IMG/VR virus record: IMGVR_UViG_3300045988_153230
Length of the DNA: 49,189 nucleotides
Origin: a virus
Taxonomy: Duplodnaviria > Heunggongvirae > Uroviricota > Caudoviricetes
Direction: 5' to 3' (one strand)
A program made the position numbers and the translations under genes. Shown here one piece after another: positions 46-49,189 of the stretch (position 1 is the first letter of the stretch; every line of letters begins with the position of its first letter). Below the pieces are notes generated by a model, which searched no databases, was not told where the DNA came from, and saw only the letters and a program-made list of their open reading frames with translations.

Positions 46-168
46 TCATCGTAGCTCAGGTCCGTAAACCTGTAGCTTTTTCAAATCAGCCAAAACCTTT
101 TCCTGAAGAGCGTCTTCTTGCTCATTTAGCCAGTCGTCAAATCGCTGGCTAAAAAGTACCGTCCACAT
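46..168 (-). pseudogene. Truncated RelE/ParE-family (Gp49/HigB-type) toxin remnant
   Basis: ATG at 168..166 opens a frame MWTVLFSQRFDDWLNEQEDALQEKVLADLKKLQVYGPE whose DNA at 55..109 is identical to 49135..49189 (5' part of the toxin gene at the right edge). After the junction at ~55 the frame stops at 48..46. Positions 1..55 are identical to 48278..48332 (inside the 126-aa gene) but out of frame and without a start. Confidence 0.55.
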
Positions 169-412
169 GTTCAATCCTATAACCTGTAGTTTATATCACT
201 AACTATATAACCTGTGAGTTATAATTTCAAGAAAAACGGGGCTATTTAACATAATGGACGTTATCGGCACCACCGGATCACCGTTCATTGTCGGATCTAA
301 AAAATCCGCTCAAAAGATCATGTTTTCCTGGGCGTTTTCCACCGTTTTTTATGTTGCTTATTTGTTAATGAAATCTCGTTTTCAGTTTCGCCTCATTTTC
401 GACGCGAAAGCC

Positions 413-703
413 CTATTTTTGTGACTTTACTCCTGGCATATGGACTTCCCAGCGACGAATCCCCATAGCTGCGCAAAAATCAGCCACATAATTCAATCCC
501 GCCCATTCGCGGATACCACCACGGGCTTTTTCAATGAAAACGGCAATCCCTTTTTTATTGAGAGCAAAAAGCCGCCAGCTTTTTGTCACTTCGTCCTGGG
601 TAGCCACAACACAAGTGAAAGCTCCCATGCGATACAGGTCCAAGAACTCTTTGCGTGTTTTGCGTACAAGTTCCATAACAAACCTCATATTTGCATGTTT
701 CAA
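413..703 (-). CDS. Hypothetical small protein (likely start at internal Met, ~91 aa)
   Basis: 96-codon ORF overlapping by 4 nt with the upstream ORF 700..999, suggesting a two-gene operon. No family recognised. Confidence 0.4.
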   Translation of the reverse strand: MKHANMRFVMELVRKTRKEFLDLYRMGAFTCVVATQDEVTKSWRLFALNKKGIAVFIEKARGGIREWAGLNYVADFCAAMGIRRWEVHMPGVKSQK

Positions 704-999
704 ACATCTGTTTTGTTATCAATGAAGATTAACCCTAACCCAGCGAAGTAACACAGCAGCGCCCAGGCTGCATACGGAATGCTGGATCTGGATGTGGACT
801 CCTTTAACATCTGCCAATTGCGAACATTGCGACTATCTTTTAAGCCAAGTTTTTTGGCCAACTGCGAGCCGCTCATTCCGGTCAGGCCAATGACTGCCCG
901 AACTTCTCCACATGTAGGAGACTCCCATTCATCCGCTTTTTTTAAACAAGCCGGATTCAACATTTTTAAAACAGTATCTTTATCCATAACCATCTCCAT
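700..999 (-). CDS. Small protein with predicted helix-turn-helix and hydrophobic C-terminus
   Basis: Segment LTGMSGSQLAKKLGLKDSRNVRNWQ resembles an XRE-type HTH; C-terminal stretch IPYAAWALLCYFAGLGLIFI is hydrophobic. Operonic with 413..703. Confidence 0.4.
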   Translation of the reverse strand: MEMVMDKDTVLKMLNPACLKKADEWESPTCGEVRAVIGLTGMSGSQLAKKLGLKDSRNVRNWQMLKESTSRSSIPYAAWALLCYFAGLGLIFIDNKTDV

Positions 1000-1379
1000 T
1001 TATTATATCTACGATGGTAGGAAATCTTTTCCTATGTGGCAATAGAAATTTACTACATTGCGTATAAGACAACTTTTCTATGTCTAATAGGAAATGATGT
1101 TTCTTACGTTTTATCGCGTTCTGATGGCTACTGTGTGCGTATTTATCGACGTTTATTGATAAGGCTCCCCCTTCCTCCTGCAAAGCCCGGCCGTAGGCCT
1201 TATTTCGTCCTTATATAAATTGATTTTGTATAGTTCGAAACGCGCCGTTTCGAAAAGGATGATCAGGCTACTCCATACCTCCGGCAAGTGCCGGAGGAGG
1301 TATATTTGAGCGTAGCGACTCGAACCGGCGCGAGCTTTAGCTCGCTGCAAGGGCGAACATATTCACAGGCAAAGCCTGC

Positions 1380-31266: not shown

Positions 31267-31383
31267 CGGGTTATCTCCGGTTTAACCAGGGCGGGTATCG
31301 CTCGGTTTCGGGTATAACCTTAGGAAATTTTTTCCCACCTGTAAAGCACTTTTTATATAAATCTATAATTATATAATTCTATA
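31267..31383 (-). promoter_or_regulatory. Conserved ~115 bp promoter/leader cassette, copy 1
   Basis: Near-identical to 38340..38452 and 48439..48555; contains AT-rich palindromes (TATAATTATATAATT) and the RBS (GGAGATAACCCG-ATG on minus strand) of the downstream gene. Confidence 0.6.
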
Positions 31384-32274: not shown

Positions 32275-32350
32275 TGGTGGCCCCTACCGGATTTGAACCG
32301 ATGACCGTGCGATTATGAGTCGCCAGCTCTAACCACTGAGCTAAGGGGCC
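32275..32350 (-). tRNA. tRNA with CAU anticodon (Ile2/Met type, ileX-like)
   Basis: Minus-strand sequence GGCCCCTTAGCTCAGTGGTTAGAGCTGGCGACTCATAATCGCACGGTCATCGGTTCAAATCCGGTAGGGGCCACCA folds by eye into acceptor, D, anticodon (loop CTCATAA) and T arms with encoded CCA; the 5' half matches E. coli ileX as I recall it. Confidence 0.85.
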
Positions 32351-38339: not shown

Positions 38340-38452
38340 CAGATTTCTCCGGTTTAACCAGGGCGGGTATCGCTCGGTTTCGGGTATAACCTTAGGAAAT
38401 TTTTTCCCACCTGTAAAGCACTTTTTATATAAATCTATAATTATATATTTAT
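38340..38452 (-). promoter_or_regulatory. Conserved ~115 bp promoter/leader cassette, copy 2, in late-promoter position downstream of Q
   Basis: Near-identical to copies at 31267..31383 and 48439..48555; lies directly 3' of the Q-like gene, where lambdoid phages place P_R'/qut. Confidence 0.6.
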
Positions 38453-38508
38453 ATATTTTCGATGTTCCCGATGTCTACACACCATCAAAACAGCTCAAAA
38501 TGACACTT

Positions 38509-38886
38509 TCACTCTCTTCGCTTTTTCAAATAGTCGACAACATACGCCCTGGCTTTTGCCAGCTTCCGGCGATACTGTCTGAGACTAAGAGAAAGGGCGT
38601 GGGCTTTATCAATATGCGGTGCATTTATGTCGAGGCCCCGAATCTCCCACGCCCCGTATTCAATTCGGACAACCAGCGCCGCAGTCTCATCAACTACCGT
38701 GAGGGCCGTCACCGCTCCCTCGATACTGGTTTCCAGTGAGTCATTTGGTGCGCCGCCCCCTCCGGTAAACTGGCAACGCGTAACCATCATCATTTCTAAC
38801 ATCGACGCGAAACCGCTACGGGCGTTGCAGCCATTGCGCACCCACAGCGCCCATAGCTCAAACAAGCTATCCAGATCGCGTCTCAC
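38509..38886 (-). CDS. Antitermination protein Q-like (Phage_antitermQ-type)
   Basis: 125 aa; ...LFELWALWVRNG...FTGGGGAPNDSLETSIEGAVTALTVVDETAALVVRIEY...LSLRQYRRKLAKARAYV... fits the small Q-family pattern. Confidence 0.6.
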   Translation of the reverse strand: MRRDLDSLFELWALWVRNGCNARSGFASMLEMMMVTRCQFTGGGGAPNDSLETSIEGAVTALTVVDETAALVVRIEYGAWEIRGLDINAPHIDKAHALSLSLRQYRRKLAKARAYVVDYLKKRRE

Positions 38887-41033: not shown

Positions 41034-41690
41034 ATGAAAAGCAACGACGAGAACATCAAGAAAGAAATAGGTCTGCGCATTCAGACTCTACGGAAACAAT
41101 CCGGCATGACTGCCGGAGATCTCCAGCAAGTCACTGGAATAGGCTTAAGCACCTTGCAGAACTATGAGGCCGGATTAAGACAACCATCTATACCTGCCAT
41201 CAAGAAAATTGCGCACGCCCTGAAAGCATCAGCGCCTTATATCGCGTGCTTAACAGATAACCCGTTCCCACCCCAGAATACTAACGCTCCTGTTATTCCT
41301 GGGCTTGTAGCTATAAAAAATGACATAGCATCGCACGCCGGAGAAAAGCCAGTGCTGGCGATAGAACAGGAGATTCTACGAAGCAAGAACATCAACCCAT
41401 CGTCTCTGTCAGTTCTCCAGAGCAACGATGAGTTAATGTCACCAACAATATCCCCAGGCTCCCAAGTCCTGATTGATACAGACGATACAGAGATTCATGA
41501 GGGGATCTATGCCCTTGAAGACAGAAATGGCCTGGTTGTTTTGAGGCACTGTAGAGTCATACCGGGTGACAATGCTGTTATGCTGTCAACCGAAAGGGAT
41601 GCTGAAATGAACACTAAGCATCTGAATAACGAGGAATTTAAGCGTTATAAAGTTCTTGGCCGCGTAGTTAGTGTTGTCAACTGGTTATGA
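41034..41690 (+). CDS. CI-like repressor, HTH plus S24 (LexA-like) peptidase domain
   Basis: 218 aa; N-terminal HTH (...IGLRIQTLRKQSGMTAGDLQQVTGIGLSTLQNYEAG...), C-terminal S24-like (...MSPTISPGSQVLID...FKRYKVLGRVV...). Followed by a hairpin (GCACGGCGAAAGCCGTGC). Confidence 0.8.
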   Translation: MKSNDENIKKEIGLRIQTLRKQSGMTAGDLQQVTGIGLSTLQNYEAGLRQPSIPAIKKIAHALKASAPYIACLTDNPFPPQNTNAPVIPGLVAIKNDIASHAGEKPVLAIEQEILRSKNINPSSLSVLQSNDELMSPTISPGSQVLIDTDDTEIHEGIYALEDRNGLVVLRHCRVIPGDNAVMLSTERDAEMNTKHLNNEEFKRYKVLGRVVSVVNWL

Positions 41691-42284: not shown

Positions 42285-42307
42285 CCAAACACATGGAGTC
42301 TCGACAA

Positions 42308-42961
42308 ATGACTATCTCTGTAGGTATTTTCAACGGAAAAGGCGGCGTAACCAAATCAACAATTGCCCGTGCTTTAGCAGTTGCTTATGCAAAGGCTGGC
42401 TGGAATGTATGCCTGATCGATATGGATGTGCTTAACGGAACGGTAACGCGTTGGGTACAACGCAGAATGGCCAACAATATCGAACCAGCAATCGCGGCGC
42501 AGCCGTGCGGCACACCATCACAAGTCCAGAAAATCATCGAATCAGAAATATACGACCTGGTTATCGTCGATGGCGGTGCCTACGCATCTGAATCAGTACC
42601 GAAGCTCTCTGAATTTCTGGATATGGTTATTTTGCCAACCAGATTCTCTACCGATGACCTGGAAACCACCGTTAACACAGCTCACGGCATCGTTAAAAAG
42701 GGTGTACCAATCAAGAAAATTTGCATGGTGTTTTCCGGCGCGGCTGAAAACGAAGCTGACTATATTGAAGCCCAAGAGTACCTGGCTAATACGCCATACT
42801 TTGTTGTCGATAAGTACATTCCCCACAAGCCAGCTCTGAGCAAAGCTCAGGATAAGGGCTTAAGCCTCATTGAGTGCTCATACGTTGCGCCACGCAAAAA
42901 GGCAGACGACGTTATTCAGGGGATTATCAACCAGCTTGAGGCTCTGACTACTGCCGCGTAA
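42308..42961 (+). CDS. parA: ParA-family partition ATPase (type Ib, ParF-like)
   Basis: ~217 aa from ATG at 42308 (GGAG RBS): MTISVGIFNGKGGVTKSTIA... deviant Walker A near the N-terminus. Confidence 0.8.
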   Translation: MTISVGIFNGKGGVTKSTIARALAVAYAKAGWNVCLIDMDVLNGTVTRWVQRRMANNIEPAIAAQPCGTPSQVQKIIESEIYDLVIVDGGAYASESVPKLSEFLDMVILPTRFSTDDLETTVNTAHGIVKKGVPIKKICMVFSGAAENEADYIEAQEYLANTPYFVVDKYIPHKPALSKAQDKGLSLIECSYVAPRKKADDVIQGIINQLEALTTAA

Positions 42962-43253: not shown

Positions 43254-43503
43254 GAGAAGGTGACGGCCTCCAGCGCCAACTGTTGGCCGTCGCGACACAA
43301 CAAGGGGAATTTGTTATGTCCGAGCAACAATATACACGGTTACTAAAAACTCGTCTAATAGACCTCAAACGGCTGCAAGCTGGTCGCTTATTTGCCCTGC
43401 TATCCACCAGGCCAGAATGGGTACGTGAAGCAGTTCTGAAAGGCTTAATGCGCTCAAGCGTTTAAATTCAACCATAAAAAAGGCCCCCGAAGGGGCCTAA
43501 TCG

Positions 43504-43626
43504 CTACTTGCTGCTAATGTTTATCGTCACATTCAGAGCGTTATCAGTAATCTTCCAACCCTCCCCATGTGGCGTAAACAAAGCTCCAGTAACAACGATA
43601 AAAATACACATGTAGTATTTTTTCAT
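43504..43626 (-). CDS. Small hydrophobic protein (40 aa), candidate type I toxin-like peptide
   Basis: ATG at 43626: MKKYYMCIFIVVTGALFTPHGEGWKITDNALNVTINISSK; a bidirectional hairpin (GGCCCCTTCGGGGGCC, ~43478..43500) follows on the minus strand. Confidence 0.4.
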   Translation of the reverse strand: MKKYYMCIFIVVTGALFTPHGEGWKITDNALNVTINISSK

Positions 43627-43940
43627 TGTGTGGCCCTTACAGGCCGTTTCACGGCATCCCCACCGACGAAAATGACGCGAGAGCAAGCACGCTGTTTGTG
43701 CCTGCGTGGTACGGCAAGTGGATAATCCTTTCCTGAAAGTCAGTGCCCGGGTGCGAATCGGCGGAAAGGCCCCAAGCCATATTACACGTCATACCCTTCA
43801 TAATGAAGGAATAAAAAACGCTTTTATTACATAAGATTACACGTAAATAAGTTAAAAACCTTCATTTTGCATGAGCTAATGAGCTAAATTTTTTTATATG
43901 AATAGTGGACTATTCACCTCAGTTGGGTAAGAATGTAGTT

Positions 43941-44044
43941 GCTGTTTGTGCTTGCGTGGTTGTATTAGTACAACGACGTTATGCTGAAAGGACCGCGAAT
44001 CCGATCAGCACGAAAGAACCGTCCTCAAAAGGACGGTTTTTTTG
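43941..44044 (+). ncRNA. Candidate small RNA with intrinsic terminator
   Basis: Begins with GCTGTTTGTGCTTGCGTGGT, a 19/20 copy of 43691..43710 (the putative 5' leader region of the small ORF on the other strand), and ends in hairpin CCGTCCTCAAAAGGACGG plus T7 (44019..44044). Confidence 0.35.
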
Positions 44045-44597
44045 TTTCTCCCCCTTCCTTCCCAAATGATTCAAATGTTAATGAGAGTGAATCATTTGAT
44101 ATGTTCGATTTAGCGCCGTTATCGACCCAATTTCTGTATGCTTCATCACAACAGTACCTTACAGCAGTTGGAGTAACAGGGATGCCGCCCCCAAATGAGA
44201 ATCCCATTGAGCTAATGCTAACTCTTTCGAATGGCCTATTTCTCAATGCTTCAAACCCCTTGCTATTAAAGTAACGCAGCATCAGAGGTAAAAGGTTATC
44301 CTCGTCCTGACTGATTGTTCCAGGGAAAAAGTAGTAACCATAACGGTTAAATTCGGGAATAAGATTTTCTACCAATGACATGAAATTCACTGGAGTAATA
44401 TTAAGGGCTGTGAAAGCACCAAAAAGGGCGTCAACTGTTAATACAGACTGCCCGTTCTCTATCTTTGTCCATGCGTTTGGTGTTTTTCCAGCAGCTTGAG
44501 CCAGCACTCCTTGATGCACACCTCTTTCTAGCCTAAGTTCTTTTATGATCATTAGGTGAATTGTTGAAAAACATGAGTTTTTTGACTGTTCAATCAT
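44025..44597 (-). CDS. HTH-domain protein with uncharacterised C-terminal domain
   Basis: 190 aa; N-terminal XRE-like HTH (...IKELRLERGVHQGVLAQAAGKTPNAWTKIENGQSVLTVDALFGAF...); C-terminal ~110 aa unrecognised. Confidence 0.55.
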   Translation of the reverse strand: MIEQSKNSCFSTIHLMIIKELRLERGVHQGVLAQAAGKTPNAWTKIENGQSVLTVDALFGAFTALNITPVNFMSLVENLIPEFNRYGYYFFPGTISQDEDNLLPLMLRYFNSKGFEALRNRPFERVSISSMGFSFGGGIPVTPTAVRYCCDEAYRNWVDNGAKSNISNDSLSLTFESFGKEGGETKKPSF

Positions 44598-45046
44598 TTT
44601 TTATCCCCATACTGAATTTTTTCTTGTTCCCGACTTTAACAAAATTCCACAACTCAGGACTGATTGATTCCCTACAGGAACTATACATTCCCATTTTTAG
44701 CATATCAAGAAAATTAAAAGCCCCGCATTCAAACCCACACTATGTGGTTTAGTCTGTTAAAATCCCTCTGTATTGACATAAATGCGCCATTGGTGGACAC
44801 TTTCCGAGCCGTAGCAAAATCTACGGTCGGGATTGGAACCCCGATAATCATCATGGCGCATACCGCGTTAGCGGTTTTTTTATGCGTAAAGCACTGCTAC
44901 ACCCAAATTATGGTGGGGCGTGCGGGGGAGTCGTAAGACTCGCCGGATTCCATGGTGACCGGTAGTTCCAACCCTGTACGTCTCACCACCCAATGATTGG
45001 AACCAGACGGTGGTGAGTATCCTTAACCTTTAAGGGAACTATCACC

Positions 45047-45238
45047 ATGACAAACTTACCCCATGACTATTACGTCAACCTCGTAAAGATCCTTCTCAAG
45101 AAAGCCTCATACGCCGATAAATTCCGCCTGGCTGAAATCATCGAGCGCGAAGCTATGCGCATCGCCAGCAACGATAACGCTGTTTCTGACGCAAAAATCT
45201 CCCTCGTAACCAAAGTAGTTATGGGAGGTGCAAAATGA
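45047..45238 (+). CDS. Hypothetical small protein upstream of antirepressor
   Basis: 63 aa, ATGA overlap with the downstream gene. Confidence 0.45.
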   Translation: MTNLPHDYYVNLVKILLKKASYADKFRLAEIIEREAMRIASNDNAVSDAKISLVTKVVMGGAK

Positions 45239-46416
45239 AAACGCTTCCGACCGTTAACACCCTACAGCCTATCCTGCATAACCAAATCCCCGTTATCACT
45301 ACTGAACTACTGGCAAAGCTATACGGCACAGACGTTGATAACATCAAAAAAAATTACTCACGTAACGCAAACCGCTTTATTGAAGGAAAGCATTTTTTCA
45401 AAGTGGCTGGCGATGAGTTAAAAACTTTGCGAGTGACTTTAAGTCACTCACAAAATTTGCGACTGGTTTTAAACGAGTCACAAAATGAGGTGCAAATTTC
45501 CCCCAAAACTCGCTCTCTCATCCTCTGGACAGAACGCGGGGCTGCACGTCACGCCAAAATGCTTGAAACTAACCAAGCGTGGGATGTGTTCGAACGGCTG
45601 GAAGACTGCTACTTCAACCAGAACGCGCAAACGGCCGCGACCGTTACCGTCTCGCCAAACAATGCTCGTGAGGTTGTCGATACGCTCAACGCCAAACCGA
45701 TGTTTTACATTAAAGTGTGCAACAACGAGCCACTCACAACCTCAGCCGATGTTGCCCAGGCATTCAGCACCACAAACAATTCCATCGTTATGGCCATCGA
45801 TGCGCTACGCATTCCTCGCACGGCTGCGGCGCGTCACTTCTTTAAAGAGCAACGACCGCTGGAAGGAAGCGACCGCGAAATAACAATCTATCGCATGACA
45901 AAAGACGGATTTACCTTACTCATGGAGAGCATCGACGGTCCAAGCGTGAAAGATATCAAGCTGGCCTACATTGAAGCCTTTAACGCTATCAGCAGCGTGT
46001 TAAAAACACAGTACGAGCGTGATCTGGCTAAACGACTGTACCAGGAAAAAACGATTATCCGCGCGGCAACAGAGCATAATCGGCTATTAACGGAACCGAA
46101 CTACAGGAAGGAACTAATCAAGGAGTTTGACAAGGCAACAGGGAAAACCAAAGCGGCGCTAAATCTGCCAGCAATGACTCAGGAAAATGTGATATCAGCC
46201 TTACTTCTTGATCTGCTCAGAAACGCCAGAGCACTGATCAGCTTTGACGAAAACCTGAATCCTCAGCTCAAGCTACTACCACCGACAGGCAAAGTAGTCG
46301 ACCAGGCAGATCACAACAGCATACTCAGCGTACTGGATGCAAACCTACCAGCCAGGACACTACAGGAACTGATAAAGATATCGGCGGATAAACTGGCCGC
46401 AGGTGCAAAACCATAA
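45235..46416 (+). CDS. Antirepressor-like protein (ORF6N and Rha-like domains)
   Basis: 393 aa; N-terminal ...PVITTELLAKLYGTDVDNIKKNYSRNANRFIEGKHFFKVAGDELKTL... (ORF6N-like) and central ...NAKPMFYIKVCNNEPLTTSADVAQAFSTTNNSIVMAIDAL... (Rha/antirepressor-like). Confidence 0.65.
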   Translation: MKTLPTVNTLQPILHNQIPVITTELLAKLYGTDVDNIKKNYSRNANRFIEGKHFFKVAGDELKTLRVTLSHSQNLRLVLNESQNEVQISPKTRSLILWTERGAARHAKMLETNQAWDVFERLEDCYFNQNAQTAATVTVSPNNAREVVDTLNAKPMFYIKVCNNEPLTTSADVAQAFSTTNNSIVMAIDALRIPRTAAARHFFKEQRPLEGSDREITIYRMTKDGFTLLMESIDGPSVKDIKLAYIEAFNAISSVLKTQYERDLAKRLYQEKTIIRAATEHNRLLTEPNYRKELIKEFDKATGKTKAALNLPAMTQENVISALLLDLLRNARALISFDENLNPQLKLLPPTGKVVDQADHNSILSVLDANLPARTLQELIKISADKLAAGAKP

Positions 46417-47721: not shown

Positions 47722-47994
47722 TCATTTGATCCCTTGTTCCAATTCTGACGACACTTTAACCTTTTCCCATACAAGGGTTTGCAGCCTTAACAGAATCGCG
47801 TCTTTATCAAGGTGTGAAAGATCCTTCACCATATCGTCAAACGACAGAACGCGAATGGCCATCTCAATGACCCTCGGCGGCTCCCCCTTCTCATATCGCT
47901 TATATGTAGCCAACGATATCCCAAATTCTTCGGCGGCTCGCTCCTGCGTCCAGTTCATCCCACGACGCCATAATTTCAATTCATAACCCGTCAT
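47722..47994 (-). CDS. XRE-family HTH regulator
   Basis: 90 aa from ATG at 47994 (GAGGAGG RBS): MTGYELKLWRRGMNWTQERAAEEFGISLATYKRYEKG... Confidence 0.6.
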   Translation of the reverse strand: MTGYELKLWRRGMNWTQERAAEEFGISLATYKRYEKGEPPRVIEMAIRVLSFDDMVKDLSHLDKDAILLRLQTLVWEKVKVSSELEQGIK

Positions 47995-48020
47995 AGCATC
48001 CTCCTCGCACAATATTAACA

Positions 48021-48047
48021 CTCGCAAAGTGTCAAAATGACACTTTG
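48021..48047. promoter_or_regulatory. Perfect 12-bp inverted repeat (operator-like) upstream of the HTH regulator gene
   Basis: CGCAAAGTGTCA-AAA-TGACACTTTGCG, ~25 nt upstream of the ATG at 47994. Confidence 0.45.
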
Positions 48048-48057
48048 CGTATTGTGT

Positions 48058-48438
48058 TTACTTAACGAGGAATAAAAATGGTTTATTGTTCGGCGGTGTA
48101 ATCGGGGCTGGCTCGCTTTTGCTCATGCGATCAGTGTACCAGGCCAACTCCTTGTCAAAGTAAGCCTGATTAAAATAGGCCATGAATGTAGTTTCAAATC
48201 CATAACGACCGCTAATACGCAGCATCTGATTGCCGTTCTCTGTTTCCAGATATACCTGGGCACGTTCCTGATTCTCCTTCAGCCAGGTTAAAGCCTCATC
48301 GCATGAGGACACACGATACTCATCATCGTAGCAGTCATCGATGCGGCTTGAGGAAGAACGGCAAATCACGCCAACAGAACCAGCCAGGATAGTTTGAATT
48401 TTAAGGAAAGCGTTTTTGCGGATTTTAATCATGCTCAT
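48058..48438 (-). CDS. Hypothetical protein (126 aa), first gene after cassette copy 3
   Basis: ATG at 48438 with the cassette-supplied RBS; its middle part (48278..48332) is duplicated at window positions 1..55. Confidence 0.55.
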   Translation of the reverse strand: MSMIKIRKNAFLKIQTILAGSVGVICRSSSSRIDDCYDDEYRVSSCDEALTWLKENQERAQVYLETENGNQMLRISGRYGFETTFMAYFNQAYFDKELAWYTDRMSKSEPAPITPPNNKPFLFLVK

Positions 48439-48555
48439 CGGGTTATCTCCGGTTTAACCAGGACGGGTATCGCTCGGTTTCGGGTATAACCTTAGGAAAT
48501 TTTTTCCCACCTGTAAAGCACTTTTTATATAAATATATAATTATATAATTCTATG
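48439..48555 (-). promoter_or_regulatory. Conserved ~115 bp promoter/leader cassette, copy 3
   Basis: Near-identical to copies 1 and 2, including TATATAATTATATAATT palindrome and RBS/start context. Confidence 0.6.
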
Positions 48556-48601: not shown

Positions 48602-48901
48602 TCAGATGTTAAACGCTATTCGTTTTCCTGTGGGAAGCTCAACATCCAGGCTTAATTTGCCTCCCATAGCTTCAACGTAACGCTTTAATGTCGCCAGCTT
48701 TAAATCATTTCCGCGCTGCTCCAGCTTTGTTACTGCTGGCTGGCTTATACCCATCGCCTCAGCAACCTGTTTTTGTGATAACTGGAGTTCTTCACGCATC
48801 ATCTGCAAGCCGACCTCAAGAATCATCTCATCTGCCATTTCTTTAATTCGCGCCTGGCTTTCCGGTGAACGGCTGGCAATCGCCTCATCTAATGTTCTCA
48901 T
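48602..48901 (-). CDS. HigA-like antitoxin (XRE-family HTH)
   Basis: 99 aa; ...LQLSQKQVAEAMGISQPAVTKLEQRGNDLKLATLKRYVEAMGG...; ATG overlaps the stop of the upstream toxin gene by 1 nt (toxin-first order as in higBA). Confidence 0.7.
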   Translation of the reverse strand: MRTLDEAIASRSPESQARIKEMADEMILEVGLQMMREELQLSQKQVAEAMGISQPAVTKLEQRGNDLKLATLKRYVEAMGGKLSLDVELPTGKRIAFNI

Positions 48902-49189
48902 TACTTGCTCTCCAGTGTGTTCAGATGTGCTGCAAACTCATCCTCAGCTATACGCACCAGTTTTTCATAAAACCGCTTATCGTTACTTTTGTCTCCTGCA
49001 CAAAGAACGATGGCCCGGCGAATCGGATCGAACGCATAAAAGGCTCTTATCGGACGGCCAGAAAACTGAACGCGAAGCTCTTTCATATTTTTGTACCGAG
49101 AACCTTTTACGGTATCGGCATATGGCCTGGGTAACTCAGGTCCGTAAACCTGTAGCTTTTTCAAATCAGCCAAAACCTTTTCCTGAAGA
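48901..49189 (-). CDS. RelE/ParE-superfamily toxin, Gp49/HigB-like; 5' end cut by window edge
   Basis: ...GPELPRPYADTVKGSRYKNMKELRVQFSGRPIRAFYAFDPIRRAIVLCAGDKSNDKRFY... matches the Gp49-like addiction-module killer pattern. The true start lies beyond 49189; the homologous left-end copy suggests the N-terminus MWTVLFSQRFDDWLNEQEDALQEKVL... Confidence 0.75.
   Translation of the reverse strand, partial: LQEKVLADLKKLQVYGPELPRPYADTVKGSRYKNMKELRVQFSGRPIRAFYAFDPIRRAIVLCAGDKSNDKRFYEKLVRIAEDEFAAHLNTLESK

Follow-up and report, generated by a model that had tools for sequence, protein, structure and literature searches.

The two small genes at positions 413-999 of a 49,189-nucleotide viral DNA sequence (the whole of which was analyzed and is referred to here as the window) raise the question of what a helix-turn-helix (HTH) protein and a small partner are doing beside a replication origin. 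The original prediction placed this pair between a toxin remnant and the origin, outside the regulatory backbone of the element, and proposed that it was accessory or addiction cargo. Whether the two genes belong together, and whether the first of them is cargo at all, can be addressed by considering their boundaries, their relatives and the DNA sites that surround them.

The replicon and the boundaries of the two genes

The window is a complete circular phage-plasmid of ~49 kb. The region is 99.6% identical to that of Escherichia coli plasmid pESBL3215 and 99.7% identical to that of Yersinia phage vB_YpM_39, and both genes are found at ≥99% identity in ~60 E. coli plasmids. The annotation of pESBL3215 includes myovirus structural genes in addition to RepA, ParA and a module of the higBA type, in which a RelE/ParE toxin is paired with an HTH protein. 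An assignment of the ~49-kb element to the pSLy3 phage-plasmid group was left unused; the literature places pSLy3 in the SSU5 supergroup.

Circularity accounts for the supposed toxin remnant. Positions 55-109 duplicate the last 55 bases of the window (49135-49189) and represent the circular overlap. When the ends are joined, the 5' part of higB at 55..168 (minus strand) continues at 49134→48901 across the junction to give an intact 115-aa RelE/ParE-type toxin that is identical to the pESBL3215 toxin and is followed by a 99-aa HTH antitoxin (48602..48901). As the circular genome has been cut inside higB, the "remnant" is an artifact of linearization and the neighboring toxin gene is intact. Positions 1-54 duplicate an internal stretch (48278-48331) within a 126-aa gene, which resembles an assembly artifact.

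The direct repeats of TATAACCTGT that were reported upstream of the pair are real, but they lie downstream of it on the coding strand. They are found at 178-195 and 206-223 (together spanning 178..223, minus strand), and each is an 18-bp near-palindrome of the form TATAAC-N6-GTTATA. Repeat searches, promoter scanning and comparison with a relative place them outside the two-gene region: they overlap a predicted minus-strand promoter (TTGAAA-17-TATAGT, 230→202) located just before the higB start at 168, and at the matching place ahead of higB a Salmonella relative (L022) carries other palindromes (TATAAGC-N4-GCTTATA). The repeats are thus best read as putative higBA operators and not as part of the gene pair.

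Both minus-strand ORFs are genuine genes, although their limits differ from those first given. Taken at maximal length, the two ORFs (700..999 and 413..703) share 4 nt. The supported start of the first gene (gene A) is the ATG at 987, with GGAG 6 nt upstream, while that of the second (gene B) is the ATG at 676, with GAGG 6 nt upstream. These starts agree with the RefSeq calls for pESBL3215 (WP_000356589, 95 aa, and WP_000424604, 87 aa) and with the N-termini of homologues. They leave the genes 23 nt apart, so that the 4-nt overlap is an artifact of taking the longest ORF. Gene A therefore occupies 700..987 (minus strand) and encodes a 95-aa protein, annotated as hypothetical, that we assign by homology to the KorC family of HTH repressors. 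A spacer at 677..699 contains the GAGG Shine-Dalgarno sequence of gene B, which occupies 413..676 (minus strand) and encodes an 87-aa basic protein (pI 9.9) that is accessory and is assigned to PHROG 4595.

A sigma-70 promoter (TTGCCA-17-TACCAT) is predicted ahead of gene A at 1014..1042 (1042→1014, minus strand), with the same -35 and -10 elements and spacing in the Salmonella relative and in an Enterobacter relative (L014). Promoter scanning predicted none between gene A and gene B. With a single promoter upstream of both genes, they are probably cotranscribed. Translational coupling through a hairpin over the gene B Shine-Dalgarno sequence was considered and dropped, as this hairpin folds no better than shuffled sequences (z = -0.72). 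Further upstream, GC-rich palindromes at 1234-1254 and 1278-1297, with arms at 1241 and 1320 (region 1234-1332), stand between the gene A promoter and an AT-rich region with a perfect DnaA box (TGTGGATAA, 1481-1489). Similar GC-rich palindromes are present in the Enterobacter relative.

The replicon has several other regulatory features. A CI/LexA-type repressor gene (encoding an HTH domain and a weak Peptidase_S24 match) is found at 41034-41690 (plus strand), adjoining parA (42293-42961), indicating that the element has a classical immunity repressor besides the KorC-type one. Matches to the Rfam families isrK and C4 antisense RNA at 44808-44993 (plus strand) lie directly upstream of an ORF6N/Rha-type gene (45235-46416, plus strand), and together these look like an antirepressor control unit similar to P1 immI. 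Divergent from this unit lies the gene at 44025-44597 that the original prediction named as a similar candidate. Its 190-aa product combines an HTH_3/HTH_31 domain at the N-terminus with an unrecognized C-terminal domain; the gene is on the minus strand, with 15 stops in the plus-strand frame. A ryfA sRNA family match (134.6 bits) is located at 43476-43774 (minus strand) and a tRNA gene at 32278-32350 (minus strand).

A KorC homologue and its putative operators

Gene A was described as an HTH protein, and profile comparison with PDB sequences supports this description: the gene A profile matches the HTH domain of AcrIF24 (E-value: 1.6e-7) and Aca3 (E-value: 2.4e-3). A functional assignment comes from plasmids. 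The most distant homologue recovered in a large protein search (P0027; 52% identity, BLASTP E-value: 1e-25) occupies the korC position of IncP-1 klcA-klcB-korC operons, being encoded third, after klcA and klcB, and a tblastn search against plasmids showed gene A to be 51% identical to genes annotated as "transcriptional repressor KorC". Homology to KorC extends over the whole of this small protein, as judged from BLASTP, tblastn and klcA-klcB-korC synteny. Within it, a hydrophobic C-terminal stretch of 19 residues (residues 70-88, IPYAAWALLCYFAGLGLIF) is identical to that of IncP-1 KorC (P0027) and may constitute a dimerization or partner-binding surface.

Searches of Pfam, NCBIfam and PADLOC (the last with E-values up to 1) returned nothing significant for gene A. 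IncP-1 KorC itself has no Pfam family, which explains why gene A looked like an orphan. The statement that the pair matches no family is correct for these three databases but not in general. Homologues of gene A were found in 3,928 plasmids compared to four phage records, three of which represent this same element. Gene A also adjoins repA and the origin in all lineages examined. The original prediction named clear homology to a housekeeping-type regulator as a result that would count against it, and for gene A such homology exists via KorC. Rather than lying outside the regulatory backbone, gene A is a member of a known regulator family that is new in a phage-plasmid setting, with a clear, testable regulon marked by candidate operators at four promoters.

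The first of these sites (operator 1) is a perfect 17-bp palindrome, TAGGAAATCTTTTCCTA, at 1018..1034. Positioned in the spacer of the predicted gene A promoter, it ends in a TA with which the -10 element begins. For the pattern TAGGAAA-N3-TTTCCTA (17 bp), allowing at most one mismatch, four sites are present in the window compared to 0 expected, although three of these are carried by near-identical copies of a single repeated element and so are not independent evidence. This element is a promoter/operator/leader unit of ~117 bp that was defined by three-copy alignment and consists of an AT-rich upstream region, a -35 element (TTTACA), the operator, a conserved leader and a Shine-Dalgarno sequence, ending exactly at an ATG. 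Operators 2, 3 and 4, which are carried by cassettes A, B and C, respectively, each have one mismatch to the perfect palindrome. The promoter scanner called no promoter in the cassettes, where the -10 element (TAAGGT) is weak. A second half-operator at 1087-1106 was dropped because it is not conserved in the Salmonella relative.

Cassette A (48439..48555, minus strand) contains operator 2 (48493..48509, TAGGAAATTTTTTCCCA on the plus strand) and stands ahead of the 126-aa gene and an XRE-HTH gene. Cassette B (38340..38455, minus strand) contains operator 3 (38393..38409) and stands ahead of a DUF3560 gene, from which, following the order in pESBL3215, the gene string runs on to holins and endolysin. 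Cassette C (31267..31383, minus strand) contains operator 4 (31321..31337), is located after an MT-A70 gene and precedes small genes that lead towards ParB-like, terminase and structural genes.

Two other structural features were noted in the cassettes. The ~55-nt leader folds better than shuffled sequences (z = -2.27), and downstream of the first gene of cassette C, which encodes 73 aa, there is a strong terminator-like hairpin with a 10-bp stem and a T run (31023→31000, minus strand). This arrangement resembles a late promoter that requires antitermination, and the antiterminator might be encoded by a 125-aa gene located upstream of cassette B (38509-38886).

Conservation of the palindromes was assessed in the relatives. 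In the Salmonella relative, where the gene A region is ~68% identical at the DNA level, four perfect palindromes are found at the four syntenic promoters compared to 0.17 expected. The cassettes are conserved in this relative as well, and its lineage-specific differences are common to all three copies, a pattern that suggests concerted evolution. The Enterobacter relative retains the gene A promoter with its palindrome, the only such site in its 7.8 kb. Operator 1 reads TAGGAAAATATTTCCTA in the Enterobacter relative and TAGGAAATATTTTCCTA in the Salmonella relative, such that the half-sites are kept while the center varies.

Similar sites are found at KorC loci of two other plasmid groups. In IncP-1, TAGGGCATTATGCCCTA is located 56 nt before klcA, and TATAAT begins on its last TA (TAGGGCATTATGCCCTA/TAAT); in IncU, three TAGGCCA-N3-TGGCCTA sites are found at orf02 and klcA. 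The sites of the window, IncP-1 and IncU have in common a 17-bp TAGG-N9-CCTA form and lie at the same distance from start codons. Two features of KorC systems can thus be recognized from the sequence of this element: a 17-bp palindrome overlapping the -10 element at the gene A promoter and, in both the window and the Salmonella relative, several operators per replicon including one in the operon of the regulator itself.

The palindromes might instead be bound by another regulator, such as the XRE-HTH protein (47722..48027) or the 125-aa protein, with gene A being only a target or a local regulator. The XRE-HTH gene does belong to an operon headed by one of the operators (that of cassette A), and the conserved leader of the cassettes and the terminator after a first gene might point to antitermination control. 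However, the Enterobacter fragment also contains the XRE-HTH gene, yet its sole palindrome is at the gene A promoter; moreover, a palindrome suits a dimeric HTH protein such as KorC, AcrIF24 or Aca (PMC9638941). The sites are assigned to gene A rather than to the XRE-HTH protein mainly because of the TAGG-N9-CCTA signature shared with the KorC loci of the two other plasmid groups, and we consider control by another protein very doubtful. Gene A therefore appears, from the position and conservation of these sites, to control four promoters of the phage-plasmid.

Gene B and its independent distribution

The gene B family is rare, with 27 matches in a full HMMER scan that covered 1.84 billion representatives. 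A profile search yielded 215 clusters; every one of these comes from Enterobacterales, and none has a name more specific than "bacteriophage protein". For the genome-collection scan, a 12-sequence alignment was too divergent for pattern design and 5 sequences were used. Family members are basic throughout (pI about 9-10) and have a conserved motif, ARGGxREW...WEVH. As with gene A, searches of Pfam, NCBIfam and PADLOC (E-values up to 1) gave nothing significant, so that neither protein could be placed in a defense or toxin family represented there; scanning the members of the gene B family one by one against Pfam likewise returned nothing. Structure prediction, which had been suggested as a check, gave two AlphaFold models of moderate confidence (pLDDT 71 and 72) with a small alpha/beta fold. 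Foldseek comparisons against the PDB (performed twice) and BFVD found nothing below an E-value of 1e-3, and thus no toxin fold; the best matches (eL38 and the FtsH N-domain, about 1e-2) were treated as uninformative.

Homologues of gene B (41-53% identity) were found in chromosomal prophages at 11 loci (L003-L013), all without gene A; several phages likewise carry a gene B homologue but not gene A. In one type of setting, the homologue is located at the end of a tail operon beside converging tail-fiber genes and a bidirectional terminator; in the other, it is located in the nin-type region of lambdoid phages such as SPN3UB. Neither a gene A homologue nor a conserved neighbor was found at these loci. 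In three metagenome representatives (P0041, P0047 and P0051), the C-terminal half of a gene B homologue is joined to the N-terminus of the upstream prophage gene encoding a baseplate-like or zinc-ribbon protein; these fusions are probably deletions or assembly artifacts.

Conversely, the Enterobacter and Salmonella relatives keep gene A without gene B. In the relatives, the DNA following the gene A stop codon is homologous to the DNA following the gene B stop codon in the window, and the match in the Salmonella relative indicates that an insertion the size of one ORF placed gene B behind gene A in the E. coli/Citrobacter lineage. Dispensability was not argued from two records in which a single gene of the pair is annotated (H58 and H59): these differ by 1-2 bp, likely sequencing errors, and one of them is ATCC 25922, for which another assembly has the intact gene pair. 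The slot beside gene A is itself variable, containing gene B and higBA in the window, hicAB in the Enterobacter relative and higBA alone in the Salmonella relative.

This distribution bears directly on the proposal that the pair is a type II toxin-antitoxin system, with gene A as an autoregulating HTH antitoxin and gene B as the toxin. The arrangement is suggestive of such a system in that two small, adjacent and co-oriented genes, the first with an HTH domain and a promoter palindrome, are located beside both a replication origin and a genuine toxin-antitoxin module. However, both relatives (Salmonella and Enterobacter) as well as IncP-1 and IncU plasmids carry gene A but no gene B, while gene B homologues stand without gene A or any conserved neighbor at the 11 chromosomal loci and also in phages, SPN3UB among them. 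In addition, neither protein matches a toxin or antitoxin family in Pfam, NCBIfam or PADLOC, and the gene A-type operator is also present at three unrelated promoters. Because the two genes are not co-inherited, the addiction reading fails, and we regard a toxin-antitoxin pair as extremely improbable. The cargo portion of the original prediction fares better: the slot is a variable one and, based on its distribution, gene B is an accessory (moron-like) gene, although not a partner of gene A.

What the gene B product does can be approached through its charge and its company. It may bind nucleic acid or a host or competitor factor. One proposal is that, instead of an effector directed at the host, it is a small nucleic acid-binding regulator that modulates, for example, KorC-type repression or phage development. 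The consistently high pI, the conserved Arg/Trp motifs (ARGGxREW), a weak fold likeness to eL38 and other small domains of RNA-binding or alpha/beta type, and cotranscription with a regulator would all be in keeping with such a role. Conversely, the fold matches are not significant (best E-value about 1e-2), sister lineages that keep the whole operator set dispense with the gene, and it is present in phages that lack a KorC homologue. We consider this proposal quite unlikely.

A second proposal refines the KorC reading instead of replacing it: the two genes would form an anti-defense operon in the style of acr-aca operons, with gene A as an Aca-like autorepressor and gene B as an effector expressed in a burst at entry. 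The relatedness of the KorC and Aca HTH domains speaks for an anti-defense role of gene B, as does the fact that KorC controls the antirestriction gene klcA. The gene A HTH is homologous to both the Aca domain of AcrIF24 and Aca3, KorC relatives in IncP-1 and IncU repress klcA (PMC7314908), and gene B is small, accessory and variably present, occupying cargo sites in other phages, either within the nin region or where the tail operon ends. The combination of an Aca-type HTH protein with an inverted repeat in the operon promoter can also be read from the DNA. This role is weakened by the order of the genes, which is reversed with respect to typical acr-aca operons, by the basic charge of the gene B protein (pI 9-10 across the family), which is unlike that of most DNA-mimic Acr and anti-restriction proteins, and by its lack of a match to known anti-defense or defense models and of a structural neighbor. 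Furthermore, gene B in myovirus prophages resembles the last gene of a late operon and not an early gene. We consider the anti-defense operon unlikely, though less so than a regulatory role for gene B.

Comparison with known systems and proposed mechanism

The IncP-1 KorC proteins of RK2/RP4 and R751, which act at the klcA, kleA and kleC operons, are ~52% identical to gene A and of similar size (93-95 aa). IncP-1 KorC acts as a global repressor under autogenous control, and the klcA and kle operons that it represses undergo a strong transient induction on plasmid entry (zygotic induction) (PMC7314908, PMC10871194). The similarities to gene A include a TAGG-N9-CCTA operator with the last TA opening the -10 element, several operators per replicon and an operon that carries the regulator's own operator. 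There are also clear differences: the inner bases of the operator are AAA here and GGCAT there; the host is a myovirus-type phage-plasmid here and a conjugative plasmid there; the putative targets here are of phage type (the DUF3560-to-lysis operon and the run-up to morphogenesis) and not klcA/kle; and korC is the first gene of its operon here but the last there, and is without a KorA or KorB partner here.

A parallel in gene order is KorC of the IncU plasmid RA3, a global regulator through which the modules for replication, stability and transfer are coordinated and whose gene forms a bicistronic operon with kfrC (PMC7414963). As in the window, korC comes first in this two-gene operon, which adjoins the replication module, and the RA3 operators have the form TAGGCCA-N3-TGGCCTA. 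Identity between the two proteins is only about 30%, however, and the second gene of RA3, kfrC (encoding an alpha-helical protein), is unrelated to gene B. RA3 korCp is also reported to be constitutive, whereas an operator is located in the gene's own promoter here.

Proteins of the Aca type are dimeric repressors that act on an inverted repeat in their own promoter, limiting the burst of expression after entry (PMC9638941, PMC9410906). Gene A resembles Aca3 and the HTH "body" domain of AcrIF24 in its homologous HTH, but differs in that the HTH gene comes first, the operator is also present at three other operons and the partner is basic and unrelated to known Acrs. The likeness to type II toxin-antitoxin systems such as the adjacent higBA extends to two small co-oriented genes, an HTH autoregulator and a palindromic operator beside the origin; it ends at co-inheritance, at a detectable toxin fold or family and at the operator, which is shared here with unrelated promoters.

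C1 of phage P1 is another small repressor of a plasmid prophage whose operators are scattered over the genome at several operons, as appears to be the case for gene A. C1 is unrelated to gene A in sequence and binds asymmetric operators. The element described here also carries a separate CI/LexA-like repressor and a c4-type antisense RNA next to an antirepressor gene.

Based on these comparisons, we consider it likely that gene A encodes a KorC-type repressor acting on four promoters and that gene B is a passenger behind it. In the mechanism proposed, the gene A product would be the dimeric KorC-family HTH repressor of a plasmid-derived repA-ori-korC block, and would bind the 17-bp palindromes overlapping the -10 elements of the four promoters. 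By binding in its own promoter, the repressor would lower transcription of gene A and gene B in a negative feedback loop, while through the three cassettes it would also control a small regulatory operon, the operon that runs from the DUF3560 gene to lysis and the one that leads towards morphogenesis. If it behaves like KorC of IncP-1 and IncU plasmids, expression would be expected to surge when the DNA enters a cell free of repressor and then to be tightly repressed in the plasmid state. Gene B, located directly behind gene A, would inherit this expression pattern.

A more far-reaching version of this mechanism, which is unlikely, is that a temperate myovirus has recruited the KorC-type repressor as a second immunity-like switch that, through a single promoter/operator/leader cassette undergoing concerted evolution, silences the lysis and morphogenesis operons in the plasmid state, with a burst resembling zygotic induction on entry and gene B as an effector of the entry phase. 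If this were true, gene B would be a new anti-defense effector or a modulator of repression, and the KorC and Aca families would be tied together; our literature search found no paper that mentions these two families together.

With the KorC-type reading, two hypothetical genes in dozens of E. coli phage-plasmids and three Yersinia phages gain a testable interpretation, and a false lead is removed in that the pair is probably not an addiction or defense module. The gene B family, being rare, basic and limited to prophages of Enterobacterales, merits a functional screen. Gene A can be read as a global regulator of the KorC type whose regulon is defined by four operators, and the three cassettes, if controlled as predicted, show how the operons of a phage can come under a control circuit of plasmid origin. 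The homology of KorC to Aca-type repressors suggests that the kil-kor circuits of plasmids and the regulators of anti-CRISPR genes may have a common ancestry and logic.
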